From Amoebophrya sp. A120 (lineage: Eukaryota; Protista; Dinoflagellata): DNA of 64,000 nucleotides. Under the pieces are notes generated by a model. That model worked only from the letters and a program-made list of their open reading frames with translations, made no database searches and was not told where the DNA came from. The DNA lies in the NCBI GenBank assembly GCA_905178155.1, contig CAJINV010000005.1:6594153-6658152 (forward strand), in the 5' to 3' direction. Below are positions 193-61,563 of the stretch, piece after piece (positions within the stretch are counted from its first letter, which is position 1; every line of letters starts with the position of its first letter). The position numbers were made by a program, and so were the translations under genes.

Positions 193-419
193 TGTTTGTC
201 ATGCATATTTTCCATGAGCGGTGATGTCTGTGATGCATGCCGTAGCATCACAGATTTTTAGGGGGCTTTGCGATAGTACCTCTACCGCATGAGAAATGCC
301 TTCTCCGCGCTGGACAAACCCGACCCCTCTTGCTGGTCATGCACTGCAAATTTTTTTAGAATCCACCGACAGCATCACAAGTTGTGACCTTCCAGACCCA
401 GACATTTTTGCAGTTGATA
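193..419. mobile_element. Introner family A, right part only
   Basis: Right TIR TTCCAGACCCAGACATTTTTGCAGTTGATA; left end replaced by GC-rich sequence. Confidence 0.75.
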
Positions 420-3173: not shown

Positions 3174-6100
3174 ATGACGGCGGGCGTGGAGGAGAAAACG
3201 GCGGCCGTGGCGGCGAAGAACACCGTGGAAGTGAAAAAGAACACCGCGGACGCGAAAATCAGTAAGAACACTGGCCTGCTCAAGGAACAAGCCAAGAAGA
3301 AGAAGAAGAAGAAAACGAAGGCTGGAGTTGTCAGCGAACCTGCACCCTGGCATCTGATGCTCGCGACCGAAAGTGGAACTTGTGATGCAGAAAATAACCA
3401 AATAACCGGCGCACAAGAACTGCAGTCCGATAGCAACAAAATTGACGCTGGAGAAGATGGAGTGCCGCCACCGCTGCTGACCACCACGTCGGAAGCGAGG
3501 TATCCTAGTGAAAAAAGCGGGTAGAGTCAGGGCCTTTTTGTCATGCAAAAATGAAAGTCATACTGAATTGGAAAATCTGTAATGGGCACAGGACCAGTAG
3601 CGTCCTGGGCTGCTTTTTGCGGTACTATAATGCAAGAGAGATTCATTATTTTTCGTGGACATGGACTTGGTTTTGGATATACAAGCATGGCCCGCCACAG
3701 CTGTTTTCTCTGGGATACGAGAACCTTGAGCACTATGGATCTGTCAGGATCGAAATCGTCAAAGTTGAAATGATTTTTCATGCATAAAATGCAGCCCACA
3801 AAGTGCCCGTCTTGCAGAGTAGGCAAGTGAGGCAGATTGTAAGCCTGTTGAGGGGTAGAAACTGAGGCGCTAAACTAGCATGACAAAAGGCGTCTTCCTT
3901 ATTCAAACAGCATGACAAACTGGATACCGGTTCTACCCAGATTTATCATGCGCCACTTGGAAACTGGATTTCAAGTGGCATCCATTTTATGCATTACAAA
4001 CTATTTCCACTTTGACGATTTCAAACCTGACGCTTCCATAAGCACCACGACGCCGTCCTCGAGCTCCTCGTCGAACAGCGGCTCCTGCAGCGATATCAAA
4101 TGCAAATATCGATCTGGGTCTGGAAGCGTGCAAGTTTGTCATGCTCGGTTAGCATGAATGTGAATCTCAAGGCCTCTGTCATGCGCATTACCCCAAGGGG
4201 AAGGGCCCCAACTTTCTGTCATGCAAAAACGCAGTTTGTCATTGACTTTGTCACACTGAAATCACCTCAGAAAATTGTTATGCTGAGCCGCCACTTGATC
4301 TGGCATCGTCCTCGTGATCTTTCGCCATGCAGCAGCACAGGTTCTTTCCAGACCCAGGTCGAGATTTTCATTCGATAAGCGAAGAGCTGGCCGCTGGCGG
4401 GAACTACGTCATGTCTACTTCTTCCGGGAAAGAAGTTGAGCCCGGTTTTCTAGTAGTTGGCACTTCAACTTCTGACGCTGGTAATACTTCTTATTCGGCA
4501 TCTAAAAACGCGGTTTCCTTTTCCGTCGAGATCATCCACTGTGCGTTCGAACCCGAGCCAGTGACGTTTGGGCCGCTGCGTGTGGAGATTCCCAAACCCT
4601 TTGAGACGAAGCTTTTCGGACAAGGACAGAACAATGATGATACAGCGGGAATATCAAATGCAAAAATGTCTGGGTCTGGAAGAATACAACTTGTAATGCG
4701 TATTTCAGAACACAGAGAAGTCTCTCATGCATACGTAGCAAAAGCTCCCCACTTTCTGTCAGCAAAATAGGGGACTTGTCATGCGGATTCGGCATTGCGG
4801 AAGCTTCTCGAAACCTGTGATGCTAGAGCTTCCATGCCAGACCTTCTGTGTGATGCAAAAACAGCATGACTCTTCCAGACCCAGACACTTTTACATATGA
4901 TAGGGACGGACAATCATCCACTGCGCGTTCGAACCCGAGCCGGTCACGTTTGGGCCGCTGCGTGTGGATATCAAATGTAAAAATGTCTGGGTCTGGAAGA
5001 CTGCAACTTGTCATGCTAAATCTGAAGCATGTAAAAATCTGTGTTGCATGATTACCAAAAGTCGTCCAGTTTTGACCAAGTCGGGAGGGAGTTTCTCATG
5101 CAGGATAGGCATGAGAGAGATCGCACAGAATCTGTCATGCTAGGCCCTGCATTCCAGACCTCATGGGTCATGGAAAATCTGCATGACAAATCGCGCATTC
5201 TTCCAGACCCAGACATTTTTACATTTGATAGTGGAGATTCCGAAACCCTTTGAGACGAAGCTTTTCGGACAAGGGCAGAACAATGATGATATTTTTACAG
5301 CGGGACGAACAACAACAGTTGGACTTGGAGCAGCCACTACTAGTACACCTTCATCAACCTCCTCCGCAGTAGATGAACTAGAAAAACTGCAGCAGCGAGC
5401 GCTGTATGCATTGCCAATATGTCTGGGTCTGGAAGGATGCAAGGTTTGTCATGCTTGTCTAGCATGACTCTGAGCTCTGTATCGCGTGCCCGCAAAGAGC
5501 TCCTCTTTCCTGTCATGCAAAAACGAAGATTCTCATGCGGATTACGCAACTCAGAACCACGGAAAAATTTGTCATGCTTGGCAGTGCATTACAGTGAGCG
5601 CATTGTAGTTCCCTGACTTGCATCACAAGTTTCCAGACCCAGACATATCTGCAACCCATACGCTGGAATTTTGTGCGAATTTGAAGCCAGCGGAGATAGA
5701 AGAATTGCTGGCCGCCGAAAGGAAAAGGAGAACTACTTCTACCCGTAAAAATGCAGCTGATATCCACAGGCACAGTAAATCTAAATTTGCCGCACACGAC
5801 GTACGAATGCGGTTTCTGCATGACGAGTGCTTTCTACAATGCTAATAGCAGCATGACAAGTTGTACTTCCTAATATGCTCAATAAAATTGGGAAAGTCAA
5901 CATTTGTGATGCATTTTGATGTACGTGCAGTACGGCAGATTTGTATTGCATAACAGCCAGTACAGGGGAACAGCAGCAAGGCGAGGAAGTGGATGAGATT
6001 ATGGAGGAGATTGAGAACTACTATCAGCAAGAGTCCGGTACTATCAAATGCAAATATGTTGTCATCTGGGTCTGGGAGATTGCGAGATTTGTCATGCAAG

Positions 6101-6988
6101 CTTGGCATGACTCTGAAATCTGTATTGCGTGGCCGCAAAGTAGAGCTCGTCTTGCCTGTCATGCAAAAACGCAGTTTCTCATGCGGAGTAAGCAACTCAG
6201 AATTTTTCCATGGAAAAACTTGTCATGCTTGGCAGCGCATTACAGTGCGCTCCCTATTCCCTTTCTTGCATCACAAGTTCCCAGACATCCAGGGATATTT
6301 GCGATGCATAGGTACCAGTACCATCAGTGCCGTCACCCGGCAAACCATGGCGGGCGATCAGATCCGAATCTACTTATCAAATGCAAAAATGTAGTCTGGG
6401 TCTGGAAAAGTGCATCGTTTGTCATGCACGTTTTGCATGACGCGTGAGGTCTGTGATGCATGCCCTAGCATCACAGATTATGTGAGATCTTTACCATGCC
6501 TTTTCCGCATAAGAAACTACCTCCCGGCCTTCTCAAAAGTGAACAGCTTTATTGGCAATCATGCAACACAGATTTATGTATGATTCAGATTTAGCATGAC
6601 AAGTTGTACTCTTCCAGACCCAGACATATTTGCATTTGATACTACTACGACGGGAATGATTTGTCATGCACTGGCGGACGCGAAGGCGAACAGTCAACAT
6701 GCGGGTTTCATGATCCCAGCAACAAGAACAGCATCAAGCAATGGACCATCACATGGGAGGGGTTTCATATCGCAAGAAAAAACTGTTTCACTATAAATTT
6801 GTGATGCATTTTCCCTTTGGAGGCTGGCATGGCGAATTTTCTTTGTGATGTAGTGGGACAAACTTGCGATGCAAAATCTGCAAAGTAAGTGTTTTACAGT
6901 GGAACAGTTTTTTCGTTGGATATTGCAGGAAGTGGCTGTTGGAACGGTGACCAGCTGCACGGACTTGTTCGGGGATTACTTTCTGTGA
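3174..6988 (+). CDS. Hypothetical protein with 10 introner-type introns and an internally duplicated ~37-aa segment
   Basis: ORF pieces (MTAGVEEK..., SEELAAGG..., LEFCANLK..., EEVDEIMEE..., WTITWEGFQEV...DYFL*) join in one frame when each TIR element + 5 nt is removed. Start codon uncertain; no recognisable domain. Confidence 0.7.
3501..3717. mobile_element. Introner (TATCCTAGTGAAAA type)
   Basis: Imperfect TIR; TSD CGAGG/CGAGA; frame restored. Confidence 0.8.
3734..4040. mobile_element. Introner family G (TATGG..GTCAGGATCGAAATCGTCAAAG)
   Basis: ~35-bp TIR; TSD AGCAC. Confidence 0.88.
4094..4377. mobile_element. Introner family A
   Basis: TATCAAATG..CTGGGTCTGGAA TIR; TSD AGCGA. Confidence 0.88.
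4652..4902. mobile_element. Introner family A
   Basis: TIR; TSD GGGAA/GGGAC; inverted relative of 30960-31214. Confidence 0.88.
4969..5230. mobile_element. Introner family A
   Basis: Near-perfect 30-bp TIR; TSD GTGGA; empty site at ~4582. Confidence 0.93.
5405..5660. mobile_element. Introner family A (TATG end)
   Basis: TIR; TSD CGCTG. Confidence 0.88.
5761..5952. mobile_element. Degenerate introner
   Basis: TATCC...GCATA, weak TIR, TSD lost; +5 removal restores frame. Confidence 0.6.
6042..6310. mobile_element. Introner family A
   Basis: TIR; TSD GGTAC. Confidence 0.88.
6375..6641. mobile_element. Introner family A
   Basis: TIR; TSD CTACT. Confidence 0.9.
6768..6922. mobile_element. Introner family B (TATCGCAAGAAAAAA)
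   Basis: TIR; TSD TTTCA/TTGCA. Confidence 0.82.
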
Positions 6989-7685
6989 AGACAAAGAGCA
7001 ATACTGTGAGCTGTTAAAAACAATAGCAGCCGCCTTGTACGGCTCATCCATTGTCCTTTCAACAATATGGCGCAACAACTTACGCCCTGGTGGGTGTAGG
7101 TAACTACTTGCTGCGTTTTGAAGAGTAGTTTTCTCGAAAGTTTAAGTAGTTTGTGATAGTAAAAGATCAAAGTTTCTCAGAACGCGCAGCCCCCGGTTTT
7201 GGCAGATAGTGTATGCGTTTGTTTCGTTTTGACTGTTTGAACCCGTATTTGATTCTCATTTTCCTTTATACAAGTGCTACAACTTCTGCTACTGGTACAT
7301 TAAACCCCCCGCATCGCGTTCTGTTTTCTACCCACAACGTAATCATCAATGCACTTGTAACATCAGCTCTATTTTTGTCCTCACCACAACTCAAATAGCT
7401 TTTTGCCCCTGGTGTCTCGCTGTTTGCGATATCAGTCTTGCGAACTGACAATCCCACAGTGGTTGTTCTTGAGTTCCGCTTCTTGTGCTTTCTATTCGAC
7501 GAGAGAGATGAGGAGCAATCCGAGGAGAGAAAAATTGTCATTTTGTCTCGGCCGTGCAAAATCGTGCTCGTGTTGCCTCTTGGTCAACCACAAGACGAGA
7601 AGATGACAACTTTTGTCGTGTCAATTCGTCTTTTTCTCCTGAGTGCTGTTGCGAGCGCCACTTGACGTCTGAGCAGTCTTGCGTT

Positions 7686-7783
7686 TCATAAATCGTTGTA
7701 GGTTCTTCTTGTCGGGTCCCGTCACTTCATAAATCGTTGTTGGGTCCCGTCACTTCATAAATCGTTGTTGGGTACCGTCACTT
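7686..7783. repeat. Short tandem repeat, ~27-bp unit, three copies (intergenic)
   Basis: TTCATAAATCGTTGT...GGGT(C/A)CCGTCAC three times. Confidence 0.75.
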
Positions 7784-7924
7784 GACGAATCTCGTGGCCG
7801 CATACTAGAGGCAAAGAAAGACCAACCTAGTTCTTGCCGCAAGAACTGTTGTTCCTGAAGATTTTCCAAACGGCGAGGACGACAACTACTACTGCTCTCC
7901 TCGTTGGAAGAGAAAATAAACGTC

Positions 7925-10900
7925 ATGGCAACTGCACCAGCCGCGACCTCATCCAGTGCCGCTACGCTTCCCATGCCAATGCCCGGGCCGGCGCCACTTC
8001 CCACCGGCTCTGAGCAGATCGGCGGCTCTGCGTCCTCAACCAGCGCGGCTGGAGTATTACAATGAAAAATGCCCCCACGCCCACCCCCGAACTTGAAAGC
8101 ATTTGTATTGCAAACCTTTCCAAATGAAACATTCGCCCTCTTGCATGTATCAGCATCACAGATTTCCGATCGTGAATAGCAAAAATTTGTATTGCAAAAG
8201 ATCCCAGCAAGAGCGGTGCTTGTCATGTAAGCGATGCGAAACACAACTAGAATCTGCATCAGAAAGATTCATACTCCTTTCATGCATGACAAAAAGTTTT
8301 CATTTGGAAACTTCGCATCACAAATTTTTGCAACTTTGGGGTGGGGGGCACTTTTCACTGTAATATGGAGGTGCGCGACCCGGTTCTCTTGCGGCGTCTT
8401 CGAATGTAGCGGCAGCAGGTATGCATCGCAAAAGCACCTGTTATCGTGCTCGTATAGAATTGGCCATCGCGCATGACAGATCTGGGTTCTTCCCTATATT
8501 TGGAATTAATTATTTCGTGCTGTGGAAATGTGTCGTGCAAGAAAACAACTCTAACTCACTACCTGCACGATCACAGTAGTACTTTTGCAATGCATAGCAG
8601 CTGGGTTCCGGCAAATCAACACCAATGTGCGAAGGTGTGGCGACTTTGGCGACTACTTCTTTGACGGCAGTTGGAAGGCCAGTTCCTTCGTTTCACCCCC
8701 AGGCCACCTGGACACGGAACTGCGAACGCCATGGGTACTACTTAGAGTCAGAAATTTAAACATGTAGATCAGTGGGAACGAACAAGTTTGTGATGCGCGT
8801 ATGACCACAGGGAAATACTGTGAAGAAATCGTGGATAAACATAAAGAGTTTATTCATCTTCATCTTGATGTCCTTTCACAGTACTATCATGATTAAGTAC
8901 TTACCTGCTCCGGTAGATTTAGTTGTGCCGATCTTGTTCTCTCAATACCTTACAGACGAAGACCCTGAACTTCGTACCGAGATCGGGAAAGGCCGGCCCG
9001 CCCGCTTTGTGGCCGATCGATCACGTAACAAAGACCCCGACCGTGCCGCAGGAGCCGGTTTGGGGCTACGACAAATTATCGCTGCGGGGAAATCACGTGC
9101 CGGGATACTCGGGCTTTATTCCAGGCGAGAAAGCGGAGACGATTTATGGGAGTTTACGGTCGGGAATAAGTGACCACGCGGAGGGAATTATCCTGAGTAA
9201 AAACGTACCCACACCAGAGTCAGGATGGGGATTTTGCAACACAAACCTCGGAGTTTTGTGAGTCACGCATGACAAGTTGCACTCTGCAGTGTAGTGCAGG
9301 TTAGCAAGTACAGCCGCATCACAGACTCATCTGCTCATCCTGTTCACAGCATCACAAATTCCAAAACACGATTGGAAATGGCTCTCATGCGGATGCGCAT
9401 TACAAGTCTTCCTGTCTTTGCAAATCTGCATTACAACTCTGGTGTGGGAACGTTTTTACTCAGGATAGGAATACGGCCCTACGAGGAGAAAGACGTCAGC
9501 TTGAAGCCGATTCTGGTATTAGATAGAGTGAATTTATTATCTTTTACGCAGTTCTTGCAAGACAGAGCTGGTAATCATGCGTTTATTACGTAGTTGTTGC
9601 AAGACAGATCTCATGCGCACAGGAGGGACATGATAGTCTTTCCTTCCTTCCTGCTTAGATTCCACCTTTTCCAATCCACGAGTTTTTTCTCGTTATACAA
9701 CACACAGACTTCGACGTCAAAGGATAAACAAATTTTTACAGTACAACAATCCCACGATCGGGCGGATGCCCCTGAAGAAAATCCTGAAGACCACGGATTT
9801 GATTCACACGGTGAGCGTATCACAGTCGGAAAAATCGGAAATCCTCGACGTTACATCTCTCAATCGATACAGAAAGATTATGTGCTACGTTTTTGCTCTG
9901 GCTGGGTCTCTCCGGCAATGTGAACGTAGCATATAATCGGAGTCATGGCTTTTACTATCGGAAGAGGATTTGCGTTTTTCCACTTGATTCCCGTACGGAA
10001 ATCTGGAGCCCAATCCTGGGAGTCGGTTGAAGCAATACAAAGACCACGTTCCGCCGCCAAGGATAACGCGTACTATATTTAGGTTTGGCATGCAGAAACT
10101 CTTTCAAAAATCGCATTTGTGATGCTGGATACGACCACGCATGGTTGATGACAAAAAAAAATCACCCTTCAGCAAACTGCTCCTCCACCGGTATACTTGG
10201 ATGGTCGGGTTTATCCCAGAAGAAAAAAGATACGTCTAGATCACATTTGTAATGCAAAAAAAAGTAACCACTGCAAGCACGTGCATCTAGACCTACAGCA
10301 CGACGAGACAAAAAATTTTATTGCCATAGTGTATCCCAGCCAGCATGATGCTACGGGCTCGCCCATGACAAACTTTTATTCCGTATCCGTGCATCTACTT
10401 TTGCATTACAAATGTGAAGATCTTTTTTCCGCCTGATACGATTTCCGACCTGTGGTGAACCGGAACCTAGATGGACGGAAACCGAGCTACCTGTCCCACG
10501 ATGTTTATCCAAGATAAAAATTGTCAATTAGTGTAAATCTGCGATGCAGAACATGTAAGGTAGTTGCACTTGTCATGCTGGATGAAGCGCGTCCCAGGCT
10601 GCCTGCTTTTCCATGCGTGTTTGCAACACGTGGTAACTATGCATCGCAACTTTTCTCTCTCATCCAGTACAGATTTGTGATGCTGTCAGCCCAAGATGAA
10701 AGCTGCACTAGGTAAACAGTTTTTTTCTTGGATAATGTACAGATGATCACCGGGAAAAATGTATGGAATGCTGAAGACGCAACACAAATTCTCACTTCTA
10801 TACTGAAGACGCAATATTACAAATTTTCACATCCTCTACTTTCTTCAGCATGAGGATATAAAATCGTTTGTCATGCTAAAAGTAAAAGGCCAAGGCTGCT

Positions 10901-11045
10901 AAGAGGCCAAGGGTCCTTGTATGGTTTCGCATGTCAAGAAGTACCCGAAGAAGATATAAGCAAAGTGAGAATTATGCTCAAGCAACGGCTTCGCCTTCCA
11001 TACACCAATCCGGGCTACACGGGCTACCGGCCGGGGCATATTTGA
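7925..11045 (+). CDS. Putative axonemal microtubule-inner protein with PGY(S/T)G(F/Y)xP repeats (FAM166/CIMIP2-like)
   Basis: Spliced frame MATAPAAT...; motifs HVPGYSGFIPGEKAETIYG (~9095), ILGWSGFRP (across 10212-10438) and NPGYTGYRPGHI* (~11010). Five introners plus GT-AG introns (e.g. 8735-8955). Some internal exons approximate. Confidence 0.6.
8055..8365. mobile_element. Introner family E-like (TATTACAATGAAAAATGCCCCC)
   Basis: TIR; TSD TGGAG. Confidence 0.88.
8420..8596. mobile_element. Introner (TATGCATCGCAAAAG type)
   Basis: TIR; TSD GCAGG/GCAGC. Confidence 0.82.
9189..9467. mobile_element. Introner family C (TATCCTGAGTAAAAACGTACCC)
   Basis: ~32-bp TIR; TSD GGAAT; near-identical to 60376-60654. 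Confidence 0.92.
10212..10438. mobile_element. Introner family B-like
   Basis: TIR; decayed TSD GGGTT/CGATT; restores GWSGFRP. Confidence 0.78.
10506..10734. mobile_element. Introner family B
   Basis: TATCCAAGA...TCTTGGATA; TSD ATGTT/ATGTA. Confidence 0.85.
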
Positions 11046-12078
11046 GGGGAAAAAGACCTTTCGTGATGGGAACAACGAGAGGTTCGGGTAGAAGTTGGGT
11101 TTCTAAAATATGGTAAGCGCCGGACGTTGTTAGTAGATTAAATGATTAAACAATTGTTGTAAGATGTTAGAGTCACCTACTACTCCACCTACTGCATCAC
11201 TGCTTTCTTCAAAGCAGAACTAAGAGATTTTTCCATCAGGAGTGCACTGAGAAGGTACCACTAATGTCTTGTTCAATACCATTTGAAATGAAAGTCTTCT
11301 CTCATGTAAAAAAAGGGTGGAGCAGGATGATCTGAACACAGGTAACGACCGTGAACTGCTTGAGCTGGTTTGTACAAATTTCGATTGCCATTGCATCAGT
11401 ACCCAAGAAACTAGCTGTTATCCGTGTGACCGCAGTATTTGTACACGATCGCAGCCGTGCCGCTTGCTGTAGCAAGGACCACAGACTCTAGAGCAGGGGT
11501 GGGAGGTGAGTGGGAAAGGAGGGAAAGGGGAAGGCAGCGAGCGGGACAGGGGGGACGCAGAAAAGAGGGTGGTAGCCGGAAAGGAGGGGGGGAAGGGGAG
11601 CAAGGTGGAAGGAGGGGGGGAGCCGGGAAGGCGGTGCCAAAGAGAAGGAGAGAAAGCAGCAACTCGCGAAAAGGAAAGGGAGAAGAGGGGCAAAGAGGAG
11701 GAAACAGGGGAAAACGCTTCAAAGGGGGGTGAGCAGCAGGGGGGAAACGGGGGGAAATGCGAAAAAAGACGGGCATGCCAGGGCAGAGAGGTAGAGAGAA
11801 GAGCGGAAGCAGGAAGCAGGCGGCATTGATGGGAATTCGTGGGGTTTGTTCCGCACGGTAGAAGAAATTCTCCGGACATGGGCTTCCCAGGTGATTTCTG
11901 GGAAGCAGTCTACGGCGTACTGCTTCACAGGAGGAAGTTTGTAGTAGAATTCCGTGCTTCACCGGGTGATGAAGCTGTGTGGATGCCCGAACCGGGCCCG
12001 GGGCCCTCGCCGGACCCCGGGGTCCCCCCCCCCCTCCCCCCTCCTCGAGGGGGGGTCCCCTCCCCCGGACCCCGGGGG

Positions 12079-12212
12079 NNNNNNNNNNNNNNNNNNNNNN
12101 NNNNNNNNNNNNNNNNNNNNNNNNNNNNNNNNNNNNNNNNNNNNNNNNNNNNNNNNNNNNNNNNNNNNNNNNNNNNNNNNNNNNNNNNNNNNNNNNNNNN
12201 NNNNNNNNNNNN
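12079..12212. other. Assembly gap in GC-rich, purine-skewed sequence
   Basis: N run flanked by C/G homopolymer tracts. Confidence 0.95.
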
Positions 12213-13138
12213 CCCCCCCCCGGACCGCGGGAAGGGGGGGGCTTCGAGCAGTTGCGGCTGCAGAAAGCAAGGCTCCCTGTGCACTGGTCTGTTCTTTTTT
12301 TCACTGGTTCTTTATAAATAGCCTTTCTAGAGGACGAGCAGGGCGAGTGTTTCGCTTTTGATCTGGTGAGAGTGCGTTTTTTCTCCCCGCGTTATAGAGC
12401 AGCTTTGGTTTATATTTGCAGCTGTGAGCGACTGACTTCGTTTTTTTCCAAAGGAGAGCTCTTGCGTTTTCGCAAGCGGTGAAGTTTTTTTTTTATCGTG
12501 TGATGTCTGTGGTTTTTTGGTGTGTGAGTTGCTTGCTGCTACTCCATCGGGTTCTTCGCCGCGCTGCGCTTCGGTTTTATTTTTCGTGGCCGATGGTGTG
12601 TAAAGTAAAAGAAAAAGTAAAAGTATTGATGTCACGGTCAATTGTTTCATCGACGTGCAGCCCGCCGACATGAGACCCTCCAGTTTTGTATTGCCGTATC
12701 GGTATCTCTATCTTCTAACGGCCATCAAAATCTGTCTTCACCCGGAGGCGTTTCTTTGTTTTTAAGCATTTTTTTCCACGTCGCGAAAGGTTCTACTAGG
12801 TCTCTACCAATCTTCAGAAGTATCGACTGAACACGAGCGCGTTTATTTCCCAAACATTGGATTTAGACTTCGGAGGTTTATTCAGCTCTGCAACCAGTAG
12901 CATGAGTGTAGTTACAAGTTTTTTAAAGTCATATTTAAGTCCTTCGACGGCTTGAAGACGAAGACGCACTCGTGATGTGTCAGTGATGTAATGAAGTGTC
13001 GAGCAGTTCCTGAGTACTGCAACAATTTATAGATAAAGTTTTTGAAGAAATAATTCTTGATGGTGCGGGAACAACATATCAGATTGAATCGGAGTAAGAA
13101 GCTAGCGTTCTTGCTGTGCAGCTGCGACTCTTGCAAGC

Positions 13139-49629: not shown

Positions 49630-51090
49630 GTCAACAGCATGTTGGGGGATTTGTTTACAGAGATACGACTTCAAAGTTCTGTATCTGTGGAGCTTTTCTA
49701 TGGTTTTTGACTCGTTGAGTTAAGTGTGCCAGGTGCAGATCGTGATATACCTTCCTAGAAAATCAACATTTTTATCTCGTGTTTCGTTTTTCTTTATTTT
49801 ATTGCCAAGAACTCACTTGTTCATCAGCGAAAAAGAAAGTCGTTCGTTATGACAGCCAAGAAAATGAAATGCACCAGAAACGAGAAATCATTGTCGTTTA
49901 TTGTCATCCTACTTTTCAGTCTTGTTGAGCTTGATTTTGTCTTCGTCCTGGATCTACTTTTCACTCTTGTACGATCTTGATAGAGCTAGATTTTGGTACG
50001 CGGAAAATCAAATGGCTTCATCGCACCACCTGAATTTGCAATGCTGATTGCCTATCAGTATACACAGAGTTTCTATAAAAATATTCTTAGATGTTATTGT
50101 TTGACTCGCCTCGGATTCAGTAGGATTTCGTCTTCTTCTTGGCGTTGCCACTTCACAATTCAAACACTCACTGTGTAGACGAGCTTATTTCAATTTCCTT
50201 CTACTAGTAGGTGTAGGATGGGGAAAGACTATTGCAATCATGTGTTGTGGCACAACCCTGAAGACTTGAGCTGCACTTGCCTTTGTCGTGAGGAGCTTGT
50301 CTAGATTTATTTTCACGACACGGGGCAGAGGACAATTTGAATTTTCCGGAGCTCCTGTGTCATCTCTGATGCAAACTCGGAACCAGAACTTCCTCCGCTT
50401 CGTGTGATAGACTTGAGATTTTTGTCTACAAAAATGATTTTCAAGCTTTTCGAAGTTTCTTGAACTTTTGCAACTTATGCCCGATTGTCTTTGACGATCA
50501 ACCACAGTAGGGATCCGCGTCCCCGCAGCAAAGACCGCCGGGCCAGCATGCAAAGCTGCGATAGTCAGTTGATACATTAATTGTTCGGAAAATTAGTCTT
50601 TTCGAACATGGTTTTATTTGTGCGCGGAAAGCTGCACCCTGTAATGGCGTTTTCTATTTTGTGGTCAGAGTTGCACGCGACATGGCGCGGACAGAGTCGA
50701 GGTCCACTTTTCACTCGATTCATCCGTCGAGAGCCATGTTTGTACTGTGACGAGCGATGGTCGTGATGGCGAGAGAGAGCGAGAGAGGGCGTAGTATCGA
50801 AGTAGGATTTCACAAGATGTCCGCGAAAAATAAGGGCGTGGCTGCGACCAAGATATTGATTCGTCTCACAGCCTCGTTCGCATGCCGCTAGAAGTCGTGA
50901 TATTGTTGCTTCACGGATGAGCAAAAAGCAAGGTCTATAAGCTTCGTGAAGCCGAAAAACTACAAAGCAAATCTGCGGCATCAAGTGCAGCGTGATGGAT
51001 ACTTATACCAGTTTGCGTGATGGTTGAAAGTTTGAAAGTAAGCCGAGATAGTGAAGTTACAAAATCTTGAAGTGAAACAACCACCAACAA

Positions 51091-54000
51091 ATGCAGCCTC
51101 CGCAGCAGAACCGCAACCGGCCCGGCACGGCGGTGGGACCGCGCAGTGCCACGCTGGTTCGCGCGGGGTTGCAGGACCAGCGACCGAGGTCCGCGTCCGG
51201 GACCAAACTACCGCAGCGCCCCCGATCCGCCGCCGCCGCGGCCGTGCTACAAAATCGCGTGAATCAGCTCGAGCAGATGCTGGACCTGCAGCGCAACGAG
51301 TACAAGGAGCGGGTGGAGCGGTGGGACCAACTGCTGAATCGCAAGTTCACCATGCCGGTTCTGGGCGCATCCGGTTCCGGTGGTCACGCAAGTGTGAAGC
51401 TCAAATCCCTCGAAGAATACGTGGCCGACGAAGAAATGAAAAATTCGACCGAAGCAGGTGGCAGGAATAATAGAGCAGCGGGCACTAGCAACGGTAAGAA
51501 CAAGGAAAACAGAAATACAGCCAACGTGGGTAATCACAACAATATCGCTATTGCTCGAAACAATAAGTTGAATCGCAACAAGTCGGCCGGGCGAAAGGGA
51601 AACAAGAGGAGTAAGCAAGGCGGACTGGTAGATGGGGGCGGAGCTGCAGCATCTTCCCGAAACAAACAATCGCACAACCAGCAGCAATATCTTGGGCAAA
51701 AGTGAGTATCGTACTCGTGTATGCAATTCTTGCGACCGTGAACAAGGTGAACCTTCTTGACAGATTTGACTTCTCGAAACATTTTAGCATGCTATTTGCT
51801 TACGCTAGTCCGATACTTTTCCTTTTGCAATGCATAAGGAAAACACGACGACCCATAATAGGATGCGTGTGGAAGGGAACAACGAGCTAAACTCCAACAC
51901 AACCTCCGTCGAGGACTCTACCAGCACCGAAGAAAACGCCGTCGCTACCATCGACGCGCTGAAGCCGCCGCCCGATATCGTGCAGCACCACTCGCACTTA
52001 TTGCTTGACGTGGAGGGTGTATCCAAGAAAAAAACTGTATTAGTGTAAGTCTTTTGGGAAAACAGCATCACAAGTTTGTCTGCAATGACAAGAAACGCTT
52101 GCTATGCGCAGATAGGAAGGCAAAACACATAGGAAGCGAGCCGATCATGCATGTCGAGCATGACAAGTGTAAACTCTTTTGCATTTTCTGCATAGGAGAT
52201 TTACACTCGCACTGTTTTTCTCTTGCATAGGGTGACGAGGAGGATTCCGCTGGAGTAGAGCAGCGGCAGATGGAGGACGGAGATCGGAATAACCACCACC
52301 CGGGGCGGCCCTACGGAACAAACACCGCGCCGTTGGGGTCCTTCACCTTCTCCAGAGACGGGCGCGACACGGATGTCGAAAACGGTGGTCTTCACACTGC
52401 TGGTGGCAACGACAACATGCAGATCGAGCAGAACAACTACGATGTTGAACCGGAATTCGGGATGGGCCCAGCGGCAGGAACTACTTCCAGTAGAAATGCT
52501 GCTACAGCAATATTACAGGGAACAGCAGCAATAGGAGGACAGCAACAGAACAATATTTATCCTGCAGCGACGTCTCAACACCTCTACAACCTCCCCTCGA
52601 GCGCCGGAAATACAACAAATAAAACGCCTTCCTCGCCAAGCTCCTACCGTGGTCAGCAGCACTTAGGAGGTGCAGGCACTGTTCCGAAATCGCAGTGCAC
52701 CACCGCCCGGTTTTCAAACGGCGCAGGGGCTATCAAATGCAAATATGTTTGGGTCTGGAAGGATGCGAACTTGTGATGCGTGTCGCGGATCAAACAAAAA
52801 TCTGTGTTGCATGACTTGCAAAAGGTCCCCATTTCTGGCCATGCTGAGTGGGCATTTCTCATGCAGAATAGGCATCACTAAGGGGCTGCAGAACCTGTGA
52901 TGCTAGGTCCTGCATTACAGACTTGGCGGACCTTGGAAAAACTGCATGACAAATCTCGGAATCTTCCAGACCCACACATGTCTGCATTCCATAGACGCGC
53001 AGGACGAGCAATTCAGCTACCGCACCCCGACGAGCGGGGCAGGAGGGGGATTTGGAGGAGCAGTAGTGGTTCCAGCTCTTATATCCAAGAAAAAAACGTT
53101 GTTAGTGTAAATTTGTGATGCGCAACATGCAAAGTAATTGCGTCTGTCATGCTTGGCATGCATCGTAGGGTCCATTAAAGGGCGTTTTCACGTACTATCT
53201 GCGCATGACAGGTTTTTGCTGTCATGCCAGACAAATTTGCAATGCTGTTCCTCCAAGAAAGTTACACCTACAATGTTTTTTTCTTGGATATCTTACAACT
53301 ACACTTGGGACAAATGTTAAAACCGCCACCAGCAGTAGCAGCAGCGCTGCGGCAAAACCGCGTGGGCAGGACGACCAGCAGGAGGCGCAACACCAGCCGG
53401 AACCGAGTCGGACGAGCAGCAGTCAGTTTCTCTTCAACACGTACGAGCCGCCTGATGAGAACAGTGCGACTTCGGATCTGGACGACGACGTGGATCCTGA
53501 CGATAATCCTGGTCAACGAAGACCTACTAGTGGAAGAAACGCTAAAGGCGGCAGGAAGAAGAAGCAGTCCTCGTCTGCGCAGCTGGCGAACAAATACCAA
53601 GCCACGGGCATCGATTTTGACAAGAAAAACAATCCCGCACAACTCGCGGCGACGCAGCGGTCCGCGGCGCGAACATTGTCCCCTAGCCCCGACACCCGTC
53701 GAGGAAGGGCCGGCCGGCCGTCCTCGAGTTCCCCTAGGGGGCCCGCGGGTGCTGGTGGTAGTAGTTCCGCGCAAAAAATGAATGGCGCCAGGGGGAGCAG
53801 TGCGAACAGGAACTCAAACTCGCCGAGTGGAGGTCCTCGTGGAGGGACGAACAAAACGGACAGGACGAACGACGACCCTGGGCCGATGCTGCGGTCGCCA
53901 CCGGGCATGCGAGACCACCGGTTGGGCAGTAATTCGCCGCCGCGGAGTATCGCAAGAAAAAAGTGTTACGGTTACACAAATAGTCCATGCAGGCCAAGCA

Positions 54001-57000
54001 AGACAGACCAGCTCTGTCATGCCGGATATGCATAGGAGCTTCGTTTCATGGGTGCTTTATTCCCTTAGGATTTCTGCATTGCAAGTTGCATTCTCTCTCA
54101 TGCAGAGAAATTTGTGTTGCTGAATCGACAACAAATGTGTAAGTGTAACAGTTTTTTCCTGTGATACGGAGTCACCGGGCCTTGCACCAAGAGCGCATGG
54201 AGGACCTATGCATTGCAAAGATGTCTCGGTCTGGAAGCATGGAGCTTGTAATGCTAGTCGTGCATTCCTGTAAAATCTGTATTGCATGACTATACAAAGA
54301 AGACGCCCTCTTTAGTCATACAAAGCACAGTGTCTCATGCGGACTGAGCATGAGAGAGCGTTCTGCAAACTTGTCATGCTTGGCTGCATTGGCAAATATT
54401 TCAGTCATCCACAGTTCAGCATCACAAGTTTCCAGAGCCAGACATATTTGCATTTGATAGGACCACTTTGCGCACAATTACAATCCCGGGTTCTACGGCT
54501 CCAACAACCACGGCCACGACGTGATGCACATGAATTTCGCGTCTACCCTATCCTGAGCGAAAACGTCCCCATTGTCATGCAGATTTGCAATTACAGGAAA
54601 ATTTGTAATGCGCACTCTTATGGAAGACATTTCCAATCGTGTTTATTTGGAATTTGTGATGCTGTAAACAGGATAAGAAAAAGGCTTTCTGATGCAGCTG
54701 TCCTTGCTAAACTGCACTACAATACACAGAGAAACTTGTCATGCGTGACTCGCAAAAGTTCTGAATTTGTGTTGCTAAGTTCCCAACTTGCCTATGGGGT
54801 GGGGACGGTTTTTCAAAGGATACACCCGACCGCAGTCGGCCGCGCCCGCGAAAAATCGGTGGACGGTGCACGCGCACAAGGAACAGATGCTATGCGTTGC
54901 AAACATGTCCTTGTCTGGATCTGGCAGATTGCAAGTTGTCATGCTGAATCTACACCATGCAATCGCAAAATAAAAATCTGTGTTGCATGAGTACCAAGCA
55001 AAAGGTGTTCGCTTTTGACCAAGTTGAGAGAGGGTTTCTCATGCAGGAAAGGCATGATAAAGACCTCAAAGAGTCTGTCATGCTGGGTTCCCCATTCCAG
55101 ACCTCACGGGTCATGGAAAACCTGCATGACAAGTTTTGCAACCTTCCAGACCCTGAAGTGTTTGCATTTGATAAAAGCAGGCCCTGAGCAATCGACCGCG
55201 GACCGCTCCCTACGGGTCGTCGGCGCACCAGGTGGCCAACCAGCGGGACAAGGACGAGTCCTACAATGCGCTCAGCAACCTGCAACAGATGTTCACCAAA
55301 GTGCACAAGGAAAATCAGGTCCTGATCCAGCAAAAGCTAAACGTGGAAACGGAATTGCGCGAGTATTTGTCGACGAAGGAAGGCCACATGGCCAAGCATA
55401 TGGATTGCAAATATGTCTGGGTCTGGAAGATTGCGAAATTTGTCATGCTAGTCTGGCATGACTCTGAACTCTGTGTTGCATGGCCGCGAAGAGCTCCTCC
55501 CCCCTGTCATGCAAAAACGCAGTTTGTCATGCGGAGTACGCAACTCAGAACCATGAACAAAACTTGTCATGCTTGGCAGCACATCATAGTGAGTTCACGA
55601 CTCCCTTTCTTGCATCACAAGTTTCCAGATCCAGACATTTTTGCATTTGATAAAGGAAATATTCGAACAACGGGATTTGGTGAAGTCCTTGCGCACTCGA
55701 CTTTACAACATGGAGCAGGATAACGTGCGCGCGACGGCGAAAGCTAAGCGGTGTGAAATATCAAATGCAAAAATGTCTGGGTCTGGTTCTGGAAGAACGC
55801 AACTTGTGATGCTGCATTTGGATGTCTAAAAAATTTGTGTTGCATGAGCAGCAAAAGGATTCTAATTTTTGCTACGCGGAGAGGGCATTTGTCATGCGGA
55901 ATAGGCATCAAGAATCCCTCAGAAAACCTGTGATGCTAGGGCATGCATCACAGATCGATCATGGCTCATGCAAACCGTGCATGACAAGTCTCAGAAAAAT
56001 CTTCCAGACCCAGACATTTTTGCATTTGATACGAAAGAAGGGCATACGAAGAAGAAATGTTCCTGAAGCAAGCGTATTTTTAGATTCTTCTTTTTGTTGT
56101 CATGCGGGATGACAAGTATAAATGCAAAAATGCATCACAAGAAAATTGCTTACTGGTGTCATAATTTTGCGCATCAGAAATCCACATCTTATATCAGCAT
56201 GAAGGAGATTATCGAAGCGTCAGGATTGAAATCGTCAAAGTTGAAATAACTTGCAATGCATAAAATCGATACCAGTTCGAAGCCCAATTTCCAAGCGGCG
56301 CATGACAAATTTCCCGAGCACCGGAATCCAATTTGTCATGCTGTTTGGGCACAGACGACTGCTTTTGTCATGCTACTTTAGCAGCTCTATTTCAAACCCT
56401 AAACAGGCTGACAGTCGGCCTCACTTGCCATCCCGGCAAGACAGGCACTTCATGCCTTGCATTTCATGCATGACAAATCATTTCAACTTTGTCGATTTCA
56501 CACCTGACGCTTCCATAGAGATCGAGACTCTGAAGCAAGTAACGGTGGAACTGCAGCGCATGAATTTGGAGCTACATTTACGAAAAGTTGCGTTGCGGGC
56601 GAGCCAGGACATAAACTGGTTGTCATGCGAATTGTCATCATGCTGGATCTGGAAATAAAGCGCCAGCCGCTTTTTTTCTCTCGCGCGCGTGAGCAAGAGA
56701 GCACCAGCAACCGGCCGCTATTGCATAGACATGACAGCAAGTTTGCTATCTATGTGTTGAAAATAATAAATTTGATGTTCTGCCTCTCGTCCGCTTTCCT
56801 CCCTTCCATACACGGAATCCCCCCAAATGAAGCTGATTGAGCAAAAGCTGTACAAGTTTCAGAAGGGCCTCACCAAACGCACGAAGGAGCTGAACGACCA
56901 GAACGATGCCCAGGATGAGGCGGTGCAGGAGATTTGGGTCCGGGTAGAGAAGGTGAACACCAAGGTGGACGGGCTCTACGCAATGACGGAAGCGGTATTT

Positions 57001-58249
57001 GGTTTGTGTTGTAGATGGGAATTGCAAAAGAAAGGCGCTGTATCATGCACTAAGATCGAAGAAAATTTCATTGAAAAACAAAGATCTGAATCAGTCTACC
57101 AAGAAGAGATACTTAATTACTTGCCCGAGTCTCGACCTACTTCTCCGTGAAACAAAATCCAGCTGCAGCAAGACCGGAATGAGGCGGGCGTGTTGCTGAA
57201 GGTCGGGCGGGAGCGGATCAAAGAGTGCAAGCAGACGTTGCAGAAACTGGCCCAAGACTTCCATACGAACTGCAACAGTATCGTACTCGTAGTATCTATT
57301 GCAACACAAATTAGCTCAGCACGACAAATGGGATTTCTCATGCTGATCGAGCTTGAAAAAGAAATTTGTCTTGCATGACTGCGATCAGTACGACGAGTGC
57401 GATACTTTTGCACAGGATGTTCCAACAATTGAAGCAAAACGCGGACGACTCGGAGCGAAAATACCAGCGAATCTTGAAGCGTCAAGACGAGGAAACCAAC
57501 AAGATCAACGCGCTGCAGCGAACGTACAGGGAGATCCTGGAGGAGGTGGTGGGCAATAACAAGTGGTACAAGCGAACGAATAAGGATTTGGAAAACGAAA
57601 ATGCGCAGTTGAAAAAGGAAAACACGGAACTGCTAGAGTCGCTGATGGCCTACTTGATGCTGAACCAGCAGTCTTCGCTCCTGAAGGGCAAGGCGAAGAA
57701 AGCGCTAGATCCGTTAACCGTCACCGCGGAAAAGAAGCGGGTGCCACCCCCGTTGGACAACCGGAAAGCGATATGCATTTTGCAAATACTTGTGTCTGAG
57801 GCTGGATAATTTGTGATGCGAAAGTTGAAGGACAGGAAGATCTGTGATGCATGGCTAGGAGTGGCGGCGCCTTTTGTGTCGTGGTGGAAGAGAGTTTGTC
57901 ATGCAAAGCCCGGTACTAGAAATCGCTTCGCAATGCTGGGATCCGAAAAATTTGTGTTGCGCTAATGCCGTACAAAGCATCGCCCTTTCATGCCACACTC
58001 AGCATGACAGGCGGCGCACTTTCAAGTATCCAGGCCCAGATCGTCGAAGATATTTGCATTGGATAAGCGAACGAGAAAGACGATGACGGCAACGCGCACA
58101 AGAGCAGCATCTCCACGCAGCCCTACCCCATCCACGAGCCGATTGACTTGCCGCCGCCGCCGGAGGGGGCGTTGCTCAGTCCACGGGTCCTGGTGGAGGG
58201 GAAAAACGTGCCGATTTTGCTTGGGGAAATTGTGGATGTGAACTGTTAG
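51091..58249 (+). CDS. Large coiled-coil/low-complexity hypothetical protein with at least 12 introners
   Basis: Coiled-coil-like exons (LQNRVNQLEQMLDLQRNEYKERVERW, LQQMFTKVHKENQVLIQQKL, NKDLENENAQLKKEN). The last exon ends GEIVDVNC* after element removal. Some introns at 56-57 kb not resolved. Confidence 0.65.
52020..52229. mobile_element. Introner family B
   Basis: TIR; TSD GGGTG. Confidence 0.87.
52731..52993. mobile_element. Introner family A
   Basis: TIR; TSD GGGGC/GACGC. Confidence 0.85.
53082..53290. mobile_element. Introner family B
   Basis: TIR; TSD TCTTA. Confidence 0.9.
53948..54166. mobile_element. Introner family B
   Basis: TIR; TSD CGGAG; similar to 42709 and 31276. Confidence 0.9.
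54207..54459. mobile_element. Introner family A
   Basis: TIR; TSD GGACC. Confidence 0.88.
54549..54822. mobile_element. Introner family C
   Basis: TIR; TSD TACCC/CACCC; inverted relative to 9189. Confidence 0.86.
54891..55173. mobile_element. Introner family A
   Basis: TIR; decayed TSD GATGC/AAAGC. Confidence 0.82.
55399..55652. mobile_element. Introner family A
   Basis: TIR; TSD AAGCA/AAGGA. Confidence 0.88.
55759..56031. mobile_element. Introner family A
   Basis: TIR; TSD TGAAA/CGAAA. Confidence 0.9.
56210..56517. mobile_element. Introner family G, inverted relative to 3734/39554
   Basis: TIR; TSD GAGAT. Confidence 0.88.
57264..57419. mobile_element. Degenerate introner (ends TACG...GATG)
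   Basis: Sub-terminal IR AGTATCGTACTCGT/ACGAGTGCGATACT; TSD TTCCA; restores DFQQLKQ. Confidence 0.78.
57772..58065. mobile_element. Introner family A-like
   Basis: Imperfect TIR; TSD AGCGA. Confidence 0.83.
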
Positions 58250-59620
58250 ACCTAGAAATGTATAGAATTTTATCGAGCTGATATTTGCCGTAGTACTTAC
58301 TTCAGAAGGTTTGATGTACCAGGTCGGTGGATCATACCTCAATTTCAACGTATCTGTATCAACGATTAGAACAATGACCAATAATTTAACAACAACTTAA
58401 AGAATTAGTGAAGACAGACTCCGAATCCAAGACATCTTGTCGTGAAGAATGGTAAAAAATGGACGACGGCAAGTTGAAAAACTACGTCTTGAAAAGTTGT
58501 AACTTGAAATGTACTCTCTGTATCACCTGCTGTAGTGGACAGCTTGCCTTCTGCTCCTGCGGAGTTGCAATATTAAAGAAAGAATCTTCCAGGGAAAATG
58601 TTATGGCTTGTACCCACCAATGAACGAATGTATCAACCGAATCAATATGTGATGAAATTCTTCTATCACAGTCTCAAGTGCTGAAAATAAATCATCAACT
58701 CCTCCTGTTGCAAACGGAGTGCCGGAACTTCTTCTTTTTCTATGTACAAAAAGAAAACGTCGAAACTTATCTTCGAAATAAACGCCTCCCGCGATATCTT
58801 CGATGTCGTAATTGTCTTTCAGAACTTCTTATTTCCACTTTATTGCTACCACTGTTCCTGTTTCACTGTAAGTAGAGCAGTTTCACTGAGATGAAAGTAG
58901 ACAATGCCTCGCTCCTGGCCTGACACGAATTCGAATGCTGGTGAAGGTAGAGAGCTACAGGTGAAAGCCAGTAACAAACTGTACCTACGCACTAGAAGTG
59001 CGACAAAATCAGGGAAAAAAATTACGAGGGCTTGTGTTGCTGATTTTGGTTGATTGAGCAGACTTACACAGCAGCGGCGGCGTAGTGTTCTACTACAGAA
59101 TGTCGTGTTTCAGATGTAATTCTCTCTGTTCTTGATCGTAGATAGCTTAGAAGTCCGGGGAAAACGTCGCAAAAAAACCGCCATCGCATTGATAGTCACC
59201 AGTTACTTCCGTGGACACAAACCTACCGTAAGTACAAGGGTTCGGCCTCGAAGAACTGTATCGAGTCTTAGCACACATCCAACCGAGGTCGAGAGGGGTC
59301 GGGTGCGGGGTTTTAGCTTGAAATTTCGTGCCTAGTAGTTCCTCTGCGATATCGTCCATGATATTCGTCGACAAGATCCAAATCGATTTGTACGGGCGTG
59401 AGCGAAATTCTTTCATGAGCTGTCGTGGTAGTGTCAAAAGTACTTTTCTTCAATTCCAATTGTGGTTGCTTATGGGCACTTTCATTCGATCAGATTCATA
59501 TGATTGCTGTGCTTCATCATCCGAAGTAGAATTGGGCGAGATTTTGAATATCGTGTTCGAAATCGAGACACGACAAGTTTGAGTTTCACAAAACTTAAAG
59601 TTTCGTCTGAGAAACAAAAT

Positions 59621-61539
59621 ATGCGAATCGCAAAGCAATCTTCCCGTCTCACACTCCTCCGCGAGCTGTTTCTGTTGCAGCAAGCACACGAGCAGGGCGG
59701 CAGACCAGTCGTACACGGTTACCAGGAAAACAAAAAACGACTTCGGGGAACCGCGAGAGAAGCGCGCGAGACGGAGGAAAACGCTTTCTCCGTTGTTGCG
59801 GAAGGCAATAAAAAAGGCGGTGGCAAAAAAGAGAAGAACAAGGAGGGACGAGGTAGTAAAAGAGACAAAAAGAAGGATCCAGATGAAAATCAAGAAGGCG
59901 GAGCAGGGGATGCAATTGCGGACGCGGTGGACACGCAAGATGAGAACAAGAAGACGAGGAGGAAGAAGGCCAGCAAAGGCAAGCCAACAGAGGCGGCGAC
60001 CACAGATGCAGAAATAGGGCCCGACGGCGGGGTATCAACTGTAAAAATGTCGGGGTCTGGAAGAGTATTAAACTTGTCATGCAGGTTTTCCATGACGCGT
60101 GAGGTCTGCGTCTGGAATGCGGGACCTAGCGTGACAGAGTCTGTGAGGTCTCTGCTATGCCTATTCTGCATGAGAAACTCCCTCCGAACTTGGTCGAAAG
60201 TGAACAGCATTTGGCCCTCATGCAACACAGATTTTCGCACTATCCGGATTTAGCATGACAACTTGCAATCTTCCAGACCCAGACATTTTTGCAATCCATA
60301 CGGGGCCGCAGCGGAAGTAGACAATGGAGCCTCAGCAGATGCCGATCAAGAAGCGGATAGCGATGAAAGCAGCAATATCCTGAGTAAAAACGTACCCACA
60401 CCAGAGTCAGGATGGGGATTTTGCAACACAAACCTAGGAGTTTTGTGAGTCACGCATGACAAGTTGCACTCTGCAGTGTAGTGCAGGTTAGCAAGTGCAG
60501 CCGCGTCCCAGATTCATCTGCTCATCCTGTTCACAGCATCACAAATTCCAAAACAGGATTGGAAATGGCTCTCATGGGGATGCGCATTACAAGTCTTCCT
60601 GTCTTTGCAAATCTGCATTACAACTCTGGCGTGGGTACGTTTTTACTCAGGATATAGGCGGCCGGAGGTAGGGAGAACGAGAAGAAGCAGCGCCGCAAAG
60701 CCACTACCGATAGTGGTGACGAGAACGCGAATATCAAATGCAAAACAAGTGTCTAGGAGGTCTGGAAGAATGCATGTTTGTCACGCTTCTCTGGCATGAC
60801 TCTTAAATCTGTCATGCACGTTACCCAAGAGCCGCCTTTTTCTGTCATGCAGAAACGCAGTTTGTCATGCAGAATAGGCAACACCTAGAAGCTCAAAAAC
60901 TTGTCATGCTGGGCCAGCACTTGTGGCCTTCTCATGATACGCCACCCAGCATCAGAAATTTCCAGACATCCAGGGATATTTGCATTTGATAGCGAACGAC
61001 GATCAAACGGAACGAGAAGGAGCTGCACCAGCAGCGGACGAAAACTCCTTCGCAGCCAAGTGGCAGAACGTGCGGAAAAGAGCGAGTGAGGGTATGACCT
61101 GCTCAAACGTTAGAATCTCAAACGTTACAATAGAATCTGAGACTTGTCTTGCATATGTGTATAAGCATGACAGACTCGCAGACCGTTCCACTTTCTGCAG
61201 TACAAATTTCGGCATATTGTAGTGCGGTTCGGGACTCCGGAACTTGTCGCGCGCAGTCCTATGAGACTCGGCTAGATCATGCACTTCTTGCATCACAGAT
61301 TTCGACATCGGGGATGAAGAAATACTCGCGATGTTTTCGCGGTTCTGACCCGATGCCGCTCCAGCGCCTGCGGAGGCTTGCTTCCCCAGTGATAATGGAC
61401 AATGGCAATGTCGGTGCGGTTGTTTTAGCATCACAGATTTCGACATTCTATTGCAGCGTTTGAGATTGTAACGTTTGAGCAGGTCATAGGGGGCTGGCAG
61501 TCCTTCAAGGACAGCGCGTTGTCCAGGCTCGGCAGCCTG
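59621..61539 (+). CDS. 5' part of a hypothetical Lys/Glu-rich protein with hydrophobic N-terminus; continuation lies past the retroelement
   Basis: MRIAKQSSRLTLLRELFLLQQ... continues across four introners to EGWQSFKDSALSRLGSL, then meets a fifth element end. Confidence 0.6.
60033..60300. mobile_element. Introner family A
   Basis: TIR; TSD CGGGG. Confidence 0.9.
60376..60654. mobile_element. Introner family C
   Basis: Near-perfect TIR; flanks AGCAA/TAGGC do not match, but +5 removal restores frame. Confidence 0.88.
60732..60991. mobile_element. Introner family A
   Basis: TIR; TSD GCGAA. Confidence 0.88.
61093..61488. mobile_element. Introner family F (TATGACCTGCTCAAACGTTA)
   Basis: ~32-bp TIR; TSD GAGGG/GGGGG; internal repeat GCATCACAGATTTCGACAT twice. 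Confidence 0.9.
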
Positions 61540-61563
61540 TATCCATTGCAAATATATCTGGGC
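61540..61563. mobile_element. Left TIR of a family-A introner interrupted by the LINE
   Basis: TATCCATTGCAAATATATCTGGG directly followed by RT coding sequence. Confidence 0.72.

Follow-up and report, generated by a model that had tools for sequence, protein, structure and literature searches.

Background

The introner elements described from Amoebophrya A120 (PMC7789003, PMC12130899) have, in the available parts of these accounts, an inverted repeat that starts with TAT and continues with seven looser bases and an A-run, direct repeats, non-canonical borders and a length of about 240 nt. Most A120 families are classified as 'TIR DNA, unknown' and one of them (fam38) as Ginger with '5-bp TSD, TA/TA termini' in the accessible part of Gozashti 2025 (PMC12130899), TIR and TSD standing for terminal inverted repeat and target site duplication. 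The accessible text of Farhat 2021 (PMC7789003) reports that neither a putative transposase nor U1 snRNA was found in A120. In the current analysis we have studied the elements of this kind in a 64,000-nucleotide stretch of Amoebophrya sp. A120 DNA (contig CAJINV010000005.1, positions 6,594,153 to 6,658,152), the whole of which is referred to as the window. They share all the above traits of the published introners, and they also have an internal word, a spacing rule and a fixed cut that are not mentioned in the available parts of the two accounts. The shared and strictly spaced internal word is a real and apparently undescribed feature. Neither 8-mer form of the word occurs in the main text of the two Amoebophrya introner papers (PMC7789003, PMC12130899), and it is not mentioned in the accessible parts of a review (PMC11282704) and of a genome paper (PMC12005148). 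The literature found on these introners describes neither the word nor the spacing in its available parts.

Binding of a transposase to subterminal repeats in both orientations has been established for Hermes (PMC10368747) and for Emigrant, a miniature inverted-repeat transposable element bound by Lemi1 (PMC1636448). As far as the available text of these reports goes, the BED sites of the hAT element Hermes and the repeats of Emigrant are short, lie inside the TIRs, are sometimes quasi-palindromes and are bound cooperatively by the transposase. The elements of the window likewise possess a repeated internal word that occurs in both orientations and is conserved over its neighbours. They differ from Hermes and Emigrant in that the word is longer, is common to families with different TIRs and obeys strict spacings, in that the elements double as introns with a 5-bp duplication, and in that the binding here is predicted.

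Two other groups are comparable in their ends. IS3EU and GingerRoot elements (PMC10045372, PMC12730594) have, in the accessible text, TA..TA termini (TAY..RTA in fungal members) and TIRs of more than 30 bp, as seen here. Duplications in that group are usually 6 bp and those of the current elements are 5 bp (0/433 perfect at 6), and because of this difference the elements are not assigned to it. The nonconventional introns of euglenids (PMC12501133, available part) are also non-GT-AG, and their cut positions are defined by the distance to a terminal paired motif, 5'-N3CDG ... CH'GN5-6|R. The offsets in the current elements are 1 and 4 nt from the TAT/ATA tips, and the internal word is without counterpart in that part of the euglenid account.

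An internal word shared by different families

The window is eukaryotic DNA with long + strand genes, including a RAD51-family gene. Its coding frames are broken by short TAT...ATA elements, and long frames return once each element is taken out together with 5 nt, as exemplified by 663 codons across nine elements. All counts are drawn from the window itself and from 158 loci (486 kb, overlaps included) that one TIR pattern found in a single other assembly; this assembly may be of the same species as the window and is not an independent lineage. The TIR of family 0 served as the search pattern and this family is therefore over-sampled.

In the window 200 occurrences of the word TGT[ACG]ATGC or its complement have been counted (104 + 96), as against a mean of 6.6 and a maximum of 12 in 30 dinucleotide shuffles. 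Its density is 10.9/kb in the TIR elements (176 in 16,221 nt) compared with 0.20/kb in exons (6 in 30,684 nt) and 0.08/kb in intergenic DNA (1 in 11,783 nt), and it is present in all 12 families with at least three copies. The original prediction, made on the window from its letters, had described the elements as studded with TGT(C/G/A)ATGC and GCAT(G/C/T)ACA, and these words as much rarer in long exons and intergenic DNA; both observations are borne out by these counts. A matrix trained on the families has provided a wider word, WWYY-TGT-V-W-TGC-W, with 293 sites in the window.

The core columns of the motif are conserved at 0.85-0.97 compared with 0.61-0.87 for the other internal columns, and are higher in 11/11 families with at least five copies. 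Private changes affect 458 of 12,190 core positions (3.8%) and 3,788 of 42,987 positions elsewhere (8.8%). These two comparisons dispose of the objection, foreseen in the original prediction, that the motif might be kept no better than its neighbours. The sites are conserved within families, yet they decay with insertion age like the neighbouring sequence. In copies with mismatched duplications the extra decay is +2.3 points (1.1-3.7) for cores and +2.4 (0.8-4.5) for other columns, and site retention is 0.72, 0.64 and 0.55 at 0, 1 and 2 duplication mismatches. The use of these mismatches as a clock of absolute rate has been rejected, as it over-predicts the decay of non-motif columns.

We consider it probable, at about 60%, that the word constitutes a spaced array of subterminal binding sites in non-autonomous TAT...ATA transposons, serving a transposase or a helper, and is not a mark for removal. 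The occurrence of one shared word with strict spacing suggests that a common protein is likely to serve families with different TIRs, and a single protein system (transposase or helper) is likely to move all of them.

Altogether 433 elements have been called, 56 of them in the window, and 386 sort into the 12 families mentioned above. The elements are 110-330 nt long. The end logo of the 433 elements shows TAT...ATA ends and a terminal inverted repeat made of TAT, 7 nt and an A-run, as in the introners of A120. Family profiles find 441 near-full copies, with a TAT start in 416 and an ATA end in 415. The target duplication is perfect at 5 bp in 309/433 elements, as called by a procedure that scored 5-bp matches; this length is also backed by empty paralogous sites in the window (36165, 36600, 18718, 4579, 23148 and 22711), which directly reveal the 5-bp duplication for the elements at 18039, 21016, 4969, 22380 and 23166. 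A control for element calling on reversed sequence was discarded because reversal preserves inverted repeats.

TAT tips and 5-bp duplications are common to all families, most of which also have an A-run near positions 11-13, and 11/66 family pairs are alignable beyond motif and tips. The families are to this extent less unrelated than originally supposed, although family 0 cannot be aligned with any other outside motif and tips (z at most 2.4). At TIR positions 4-10 the two arms between the TAT tip and the A-run vary largely independently in all families, and the tip region therefore looks more like a protein site than a stem.

Spacing and orientation of the sites

Same-strand pairs 30-33 bp apart, the commoner unit, include 139 of the 293 window sites and occur in 42/61 window elements. 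Counts on the 12 family consensuses exceed the null means: same-strand pairs at 31-33 bp number 18 (mean 2.3, maximum 8 in 5,000), convergent pairs at 15-16 or 45-49 bp number 17 (mean 3.3) and divergent pairs at 16-17 or 48-50 bp number 9 (mean 2.5). The 53 adjacent gaps, taken from the G of TGC, cluster at 10-11, 21-22, 31-33, 39-44, 52-55 and 62-65 bp with exceptions at 18 (three), 28-29 and 48-49, and are more periodic than 1,000/1,000 permutations. The best anchor and period over all consensus pairs are the G of TGC and 10.5 bp, with a bootstrap period of 10.46 (10.34-10.54; range tested 9-13). When the two dominant pair classes are removed, the fit is 0.47 at 10.5 bp and 0.00 at 11 bp. 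Each element has several sites, the first of which start 32-60 nt inside the ends, and in 19/24 ends the G of the first site is 39-40, 48-51 or 59-62 nt from the tip. The consensus of family 0, for example, has the sites F41, F72, F106, F127, R142, F166, R182 and R214. The spacing is strongly non-random and near-helical, and an 11-bp period fits poorly; our inference is that double-stranded DNA is the form in which the word is read.

A 16-bp period also deserves consideration, as the 31-33 bp unit is common to the 10.5-bp and 16-bp readings. The word could be the relic of an ancestral 32-bp repeat unit (2 x 16) shared by descent and with little present function. Several families conform to a 16/32 lattice, the 32-bp units retain weak GCA half-sites midway, and the alignable family pairs also speak for common descent. 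The gaps of 21-22, 39-44 and 52-55 bp are incompatible with a period of 16, family 0 obeys the same gaps as the families with which it does not align, and cores are far better kept than spacers in 11/11 families. A relic of this kind is regarded as quite unlikely. A pure 32-bp lattice was tried and rejected on its poor fit to the divergent pairs (R = 0.08).

Inverted pairs 6-8 nt apart had been at the centre of the original prediction. All eight of its quoted examples are found at their places in the window, the left arm being TATCATGC at 23311 and GATCATGC at 52143; six of the eight fall in one family. The exact dyad of its title, TGTCATGC-N5-9-GCATGACA, has 0 occurrences in the window. With relaxed arms the spacer is 7 in 19 cases, 8 in 12, 6 once and 9-11 never, so that the claimed range holds at 7 and 8 only. 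Dyads with these two spacers account for 22 of the 293 window sites and are found in 11/61 window elements. The dyad is a minor face of the word and would represent the one-turn member of the helical spacing series.

Elements moved by tyrosine recombinases carry their sites at the element ends and make no staggered-cut duplication. The dyads have been likened to crossover sites of such recombinases, as in Cryptons, on account of their inverted arms and 7-8 bp spacer, a property shared by few of the sites. They are internal, with spacers that differ within an element, and the elements that hold them have TIRs, 5-bp duplications and several sites at least 30 nt inside the ends. Cryptons lack TSDs according to the available part of PMC12130899, and no recombinase domain is seen among the ORFs (open reading frames) scanned. 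This reading of the dyads is hardly credible.

All 12 families are inserted in both orientations, as seen from 366 elements placed by gene strand. On the sense strand 39 of these elements are without a reverse site and 37 without a forward site, giving 76 with a single orientation. The family 3 consensus has six sites, all in one orientation, and its insertions split 18:14 between the gene strands. These figures bear on the suggestion that the arms are small RNA hairpins, or single-strand RNA sites for proteins in splicing. The arms are complementary and some of them pair in a predicted fold of 55390-55665. Pairing at the variable position is at chance or below, with 0.24 (0.23 expected) and 0.21 (0.19) for the two dyads of family 0 and 0.25 (0.45) for the terminal pair. 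Among six dyads tabulated, one in family 2 has a two-sided change (A-T 24, T-A 10 of 37) and the arms are otherwise without general compensation. An Rfam search gave 0 matches, dyads hold few of the sites, and an 11-bp period does not fit; the mild sense bias of family 0 given below would suit a role in RNA. Because the arms do not co-vary and 76/366 elements carry one orientation only, RNA hairpins are very unlikely. The covariation check laid out in the original prediction thus falls on the side of protein binding, and its idea of a DNA-binding protein that reads fixed arms separated by free spacers agrees with the conserved cores in 11/11 families, the lack of general compensation and the strict spacing, from which such binding may be predicted.

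Removal of the elements from transcripts

Contigs of three runs presumed to be RNA (one sample) have been placed on 38100-58000. Among 15 of 40 joints listed, an element is skipped in ten; the others comprise three repeat cross-matches, one joint across a micro-exon and one GT-AG intron. Each of the ten element joints (49066-57420) drops the element and 5 nt. All ten are compatible with one cut only, placed 1 nt ahead of the initial T and 4 nt beyond the final A (-1/+4), and one joint fixes it alone. Where the duplication copies are unequal, the first four bases of the upstream copy are retained. For the RAD51-family gene, contigs of 3/3 presumed RNA runs skip each of its two elements together with 5 nt. 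An old element at 56579-56810 is predicted still to fold an inner terminal stem. A GT-AG reading is possible for only 13/261 elements and no target consensus is seen. The direct repeats (309/433) and the ten joints of the presumed RNA at non-canonical borders agree with the A120 type of introner. The raw RNA runs X7-X9 match element pieces only, with the genes uncovered, and the best 15 of 842 joints of the DNA run X1 are repeat cross-matches.

In the original prediction the word was a candidate for a strand-symmetric mark of sequence to be removed. A host or domesticated protein sitting on the spaced DNA sites could label the element in this way, and the positions at which the nascent RNA is cut and joined would be set by a constant distance to the tips. 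No junction sequence would be needed, in keeping with the rarity of GT-AG readings and the lack of a target consensus. One ruler fits 10/10 joints, each of the ten removed elements retains one or more strong sites, the old element at 56579-56810 keeps a strong site at the usual offset of 42, and neither U1 snRNA nor transposases were found in A120 according to the available text of Farhat 2021 (PMC7789003). The long pieces devoid of sites, described below, are not clean TIR introns, and the least mutable base is the central G. Such marking is nevertheless rather unlikely, as the cores decay with age like their neighbours. GT-AG-capable elements show no relaxation and keep their sites equally, with a retention of 0.69 (n = 17) compared with 0.69 (n = 332) in the others. 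The element at 33567-33729 has no site of 10 bits and its removal is demanded by the frame. Only one strong site is present in three of the ten removed elements, so that the spaced array is not needed for removal. So far these observations do not support a removal role of the word, which keeps a low probability since the loss of one site could be made good by the others in the element. The more specific proposal, in which a domesticated transposase or host protein loads on the sites and directs excision from nascent RNA by the -1/+4 ruler, in either orientation and without U1 or GT-AG, is unlikely. If the bound protein did drive removal, DNA-bound intron marking would be a new kind of splicing signal, and under such a DNA-level code one protein would both spread the elements and render them harmless introns.

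The word is not a general mark of introns. Sites are found in 15/48 predicted GT-AG introns of the loci unfiltered and in 3/33 without a family match; the 48 come from 164 predicted introns by a filter on flanking coding length, and the no-family-match filter partly depends on the word itself.

Nature of the proposed binding protein

In the proposed array of subterminal sites, the protein would bind TGT-V-W-TGC with an A/T run on the 5' side, and its copies would load at about 1, 2, 3, 4, 5 or 6 helical turns, mostly 3 (31-33 bp). The first G lies mostly 39-40, 48-51 or 59-62 nt from the tip. The array may help to bend the element of 110-330 bp so that both tips meet for cutting. Amplifying families would each have to keep the word, which after insertion would decay about neutrally, and removal from RNA would be a separate step measured from the tips and the TIR stem.

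The protein could also be a host chromatin or bending protein, not a transposase, that wraps the short element and favours its copying or survival. Near-helical spacing, an A/T run beside a G/C step and a single word in families with different TIRs are compatible with this possibility, as is the failure to see a transposase in the 141/231 long ORFs scanned. It is judged improbable, since intergenic DNA, where sites of a host factor are expected, is almost devoid of the word (4 sites in 11,783 nt), and since the first sites hold set distances from the tips.

Several observations weigh against the reading of the word as a subterminal array of a transposase or helper. No transposase or recombinase domain was found by Pfam among 144 ORFs scanned (141/231 long ORFs and 3 window ORFs), where the original prediction had advised a search for tyrosine recombinases and transposases; this small sample also has no IS3-like DDE transposase, and the absence of a putative transposase in the accessible text of Farhat 2021 (PMC7789003) points the same way. 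A 16-bp period is slightly better on family-weighted copies (0.46 vs 0.42 for 10.5) and fits best (0.74) in those six families that are least related, and family 3 fits 16 bp (0.91) and not 10.5 bp (-0.13). The central G changes least, being altered in only 18/1,649 cases in young copies, and the duplication clock is crude, as the decay that it predicts exceeds that of even the non-motif columns. A mild sense bias is seen in family 0 (109 vs 71; 109/180, p = 0.006). Among hand-picked non-TIR window introns, chosen with a bias by the motif, 7/9 hold a site. Two long TAT-ended pieces of the window without any site (Table 1) fit neither this reading nor that of a removal mark neatly; they have a family 8-like TIR, incomplete ends and flanking 40-55 bp duplications of exon sequence. 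Because of these two pieces some relatives may have moved without the word.

The spaced word offers a defined double-stranded bait for catching the binding protein. The -1/+4 cut is a precise rule against which non-canonical splicing may be tested, and the borders of thousands of introns would be tidied by it.

Other features of the window

The coordinates of the elements and of related features are collected in Table 1.

Table 1. Elements and associated features, in positions of the window
Feature	Coordinates	Strand	Remarks
Family 0 (about 260 nt, 21 copies; span 4094..60991), first part	4094-4377, 4652-4902, 4969-5230, 5405-5660, 6042-6310, 6375-6641, 15592-15857		
Family 0, second part	18039-18301, 21016-21278, 30555-30817, 30960-31214, 38274-38541, 40807-41058, 45363-45614		
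Family 0, third part	52731-52993, 54207-54459, 54891-55173, 55399-55652, 55759-56031, 60033-60300, 60732-60991		
Family 0, additional copy	57772-58065		by profile
Family 0, long form	21342-22057		
Family 0, copy truncated by window start	197-372		coordinates of its sites
Family 1 (about 150 nt; span 8420..57419)	8420-8596, 33567-33729, 57264-57419		33567-33729: decayed sites of 7 and 9 bits; 57264-57419: tips TAC..ATG
Family 1, likely members	24891-25080, 51690-51836		added by eye
Family 1, decayed relative	5776-5967		within hand-placed GT-AG intron
Family 2 (about 210 nt; span 6768..54166)	6768-6922, 10506-10734, 19662-19880, 31276-31498, 42709-42917, 42962-43173, 49070-49331, 52020-52229, 53082-53290, 53948-54166		
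Family 3 (about 280 nt; span 9189..60654)	9189-9467, 23166-23448, 30212-30491, 39238-39517, 41955-42233, 44127-44408, 54549-54822, 60376-60654		
Family 3, long form	43257-44070		
Family 4	15974-16270, 22380-22700, 44914-45241		
Family 5	13673-13889, 19360-19581, 27589-27805		
Family 6	3734-4040, 39554-39860, 56210-56517		
Family 9	8055-8365		
Singleton elements	3501-3717, 10212-10438, 49398-49541, 61093-61488		
Convergent dyad, spacer 8 (example)	6452..6475		G of TGC in two arms 11 bp apart
Same-strand site pair 32 bp apart (example; 6420 and 6452)	6420..6459	+	commoner unit
Element 55399-55652, unequal duplication copies	55394..55657	+	contig skips 259 nt and keeps upstream copy; 5' cut within 0-1 nt before TAT
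Old element (TAC 56579 .. ATA 56810)	56578..56814	+	duplication lost; one strong site at offset 42; unambiguous cut -1/+4
RAD51-family host gene	47583..49629	+	one GT-AG intron and elements 49070-49331, 49398-49541, one strong site each
Long TAT-ended pieces without motif site	14653-15447, 20086-20945		also L020:505-1608

The piece at 14653-15447 is readable as a GT-AG intron by way of its duplication, and part of it recurs within a family 6-like element in the locus L020. The region 34860-36660 is a diverged copy of about 16814-18760 that is devoid of the element at 18039 and lies inside another gene. No TIR elements have been called between genes in the 11,783 nt of intergenic DNA of the window, as against about 60 in coding DNA. 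A search of viral contigs gave 0 matches.

A micro-exon of 12 nt (56198-56209), with a GT-AG intron on one side and an element of family 6 on the other, is kept in a transcript contig. In the raw RNA run X9, hundreds of reads at 53184-53227 and 60374-60418 contain element pieces from other loci, which represents abundant element-retaining RNA. The singleton element at 61093-61488 lies immediately upstream of a reverse-transcriptase ORF (RVT_1, 61494-63722), with which it is in frame.

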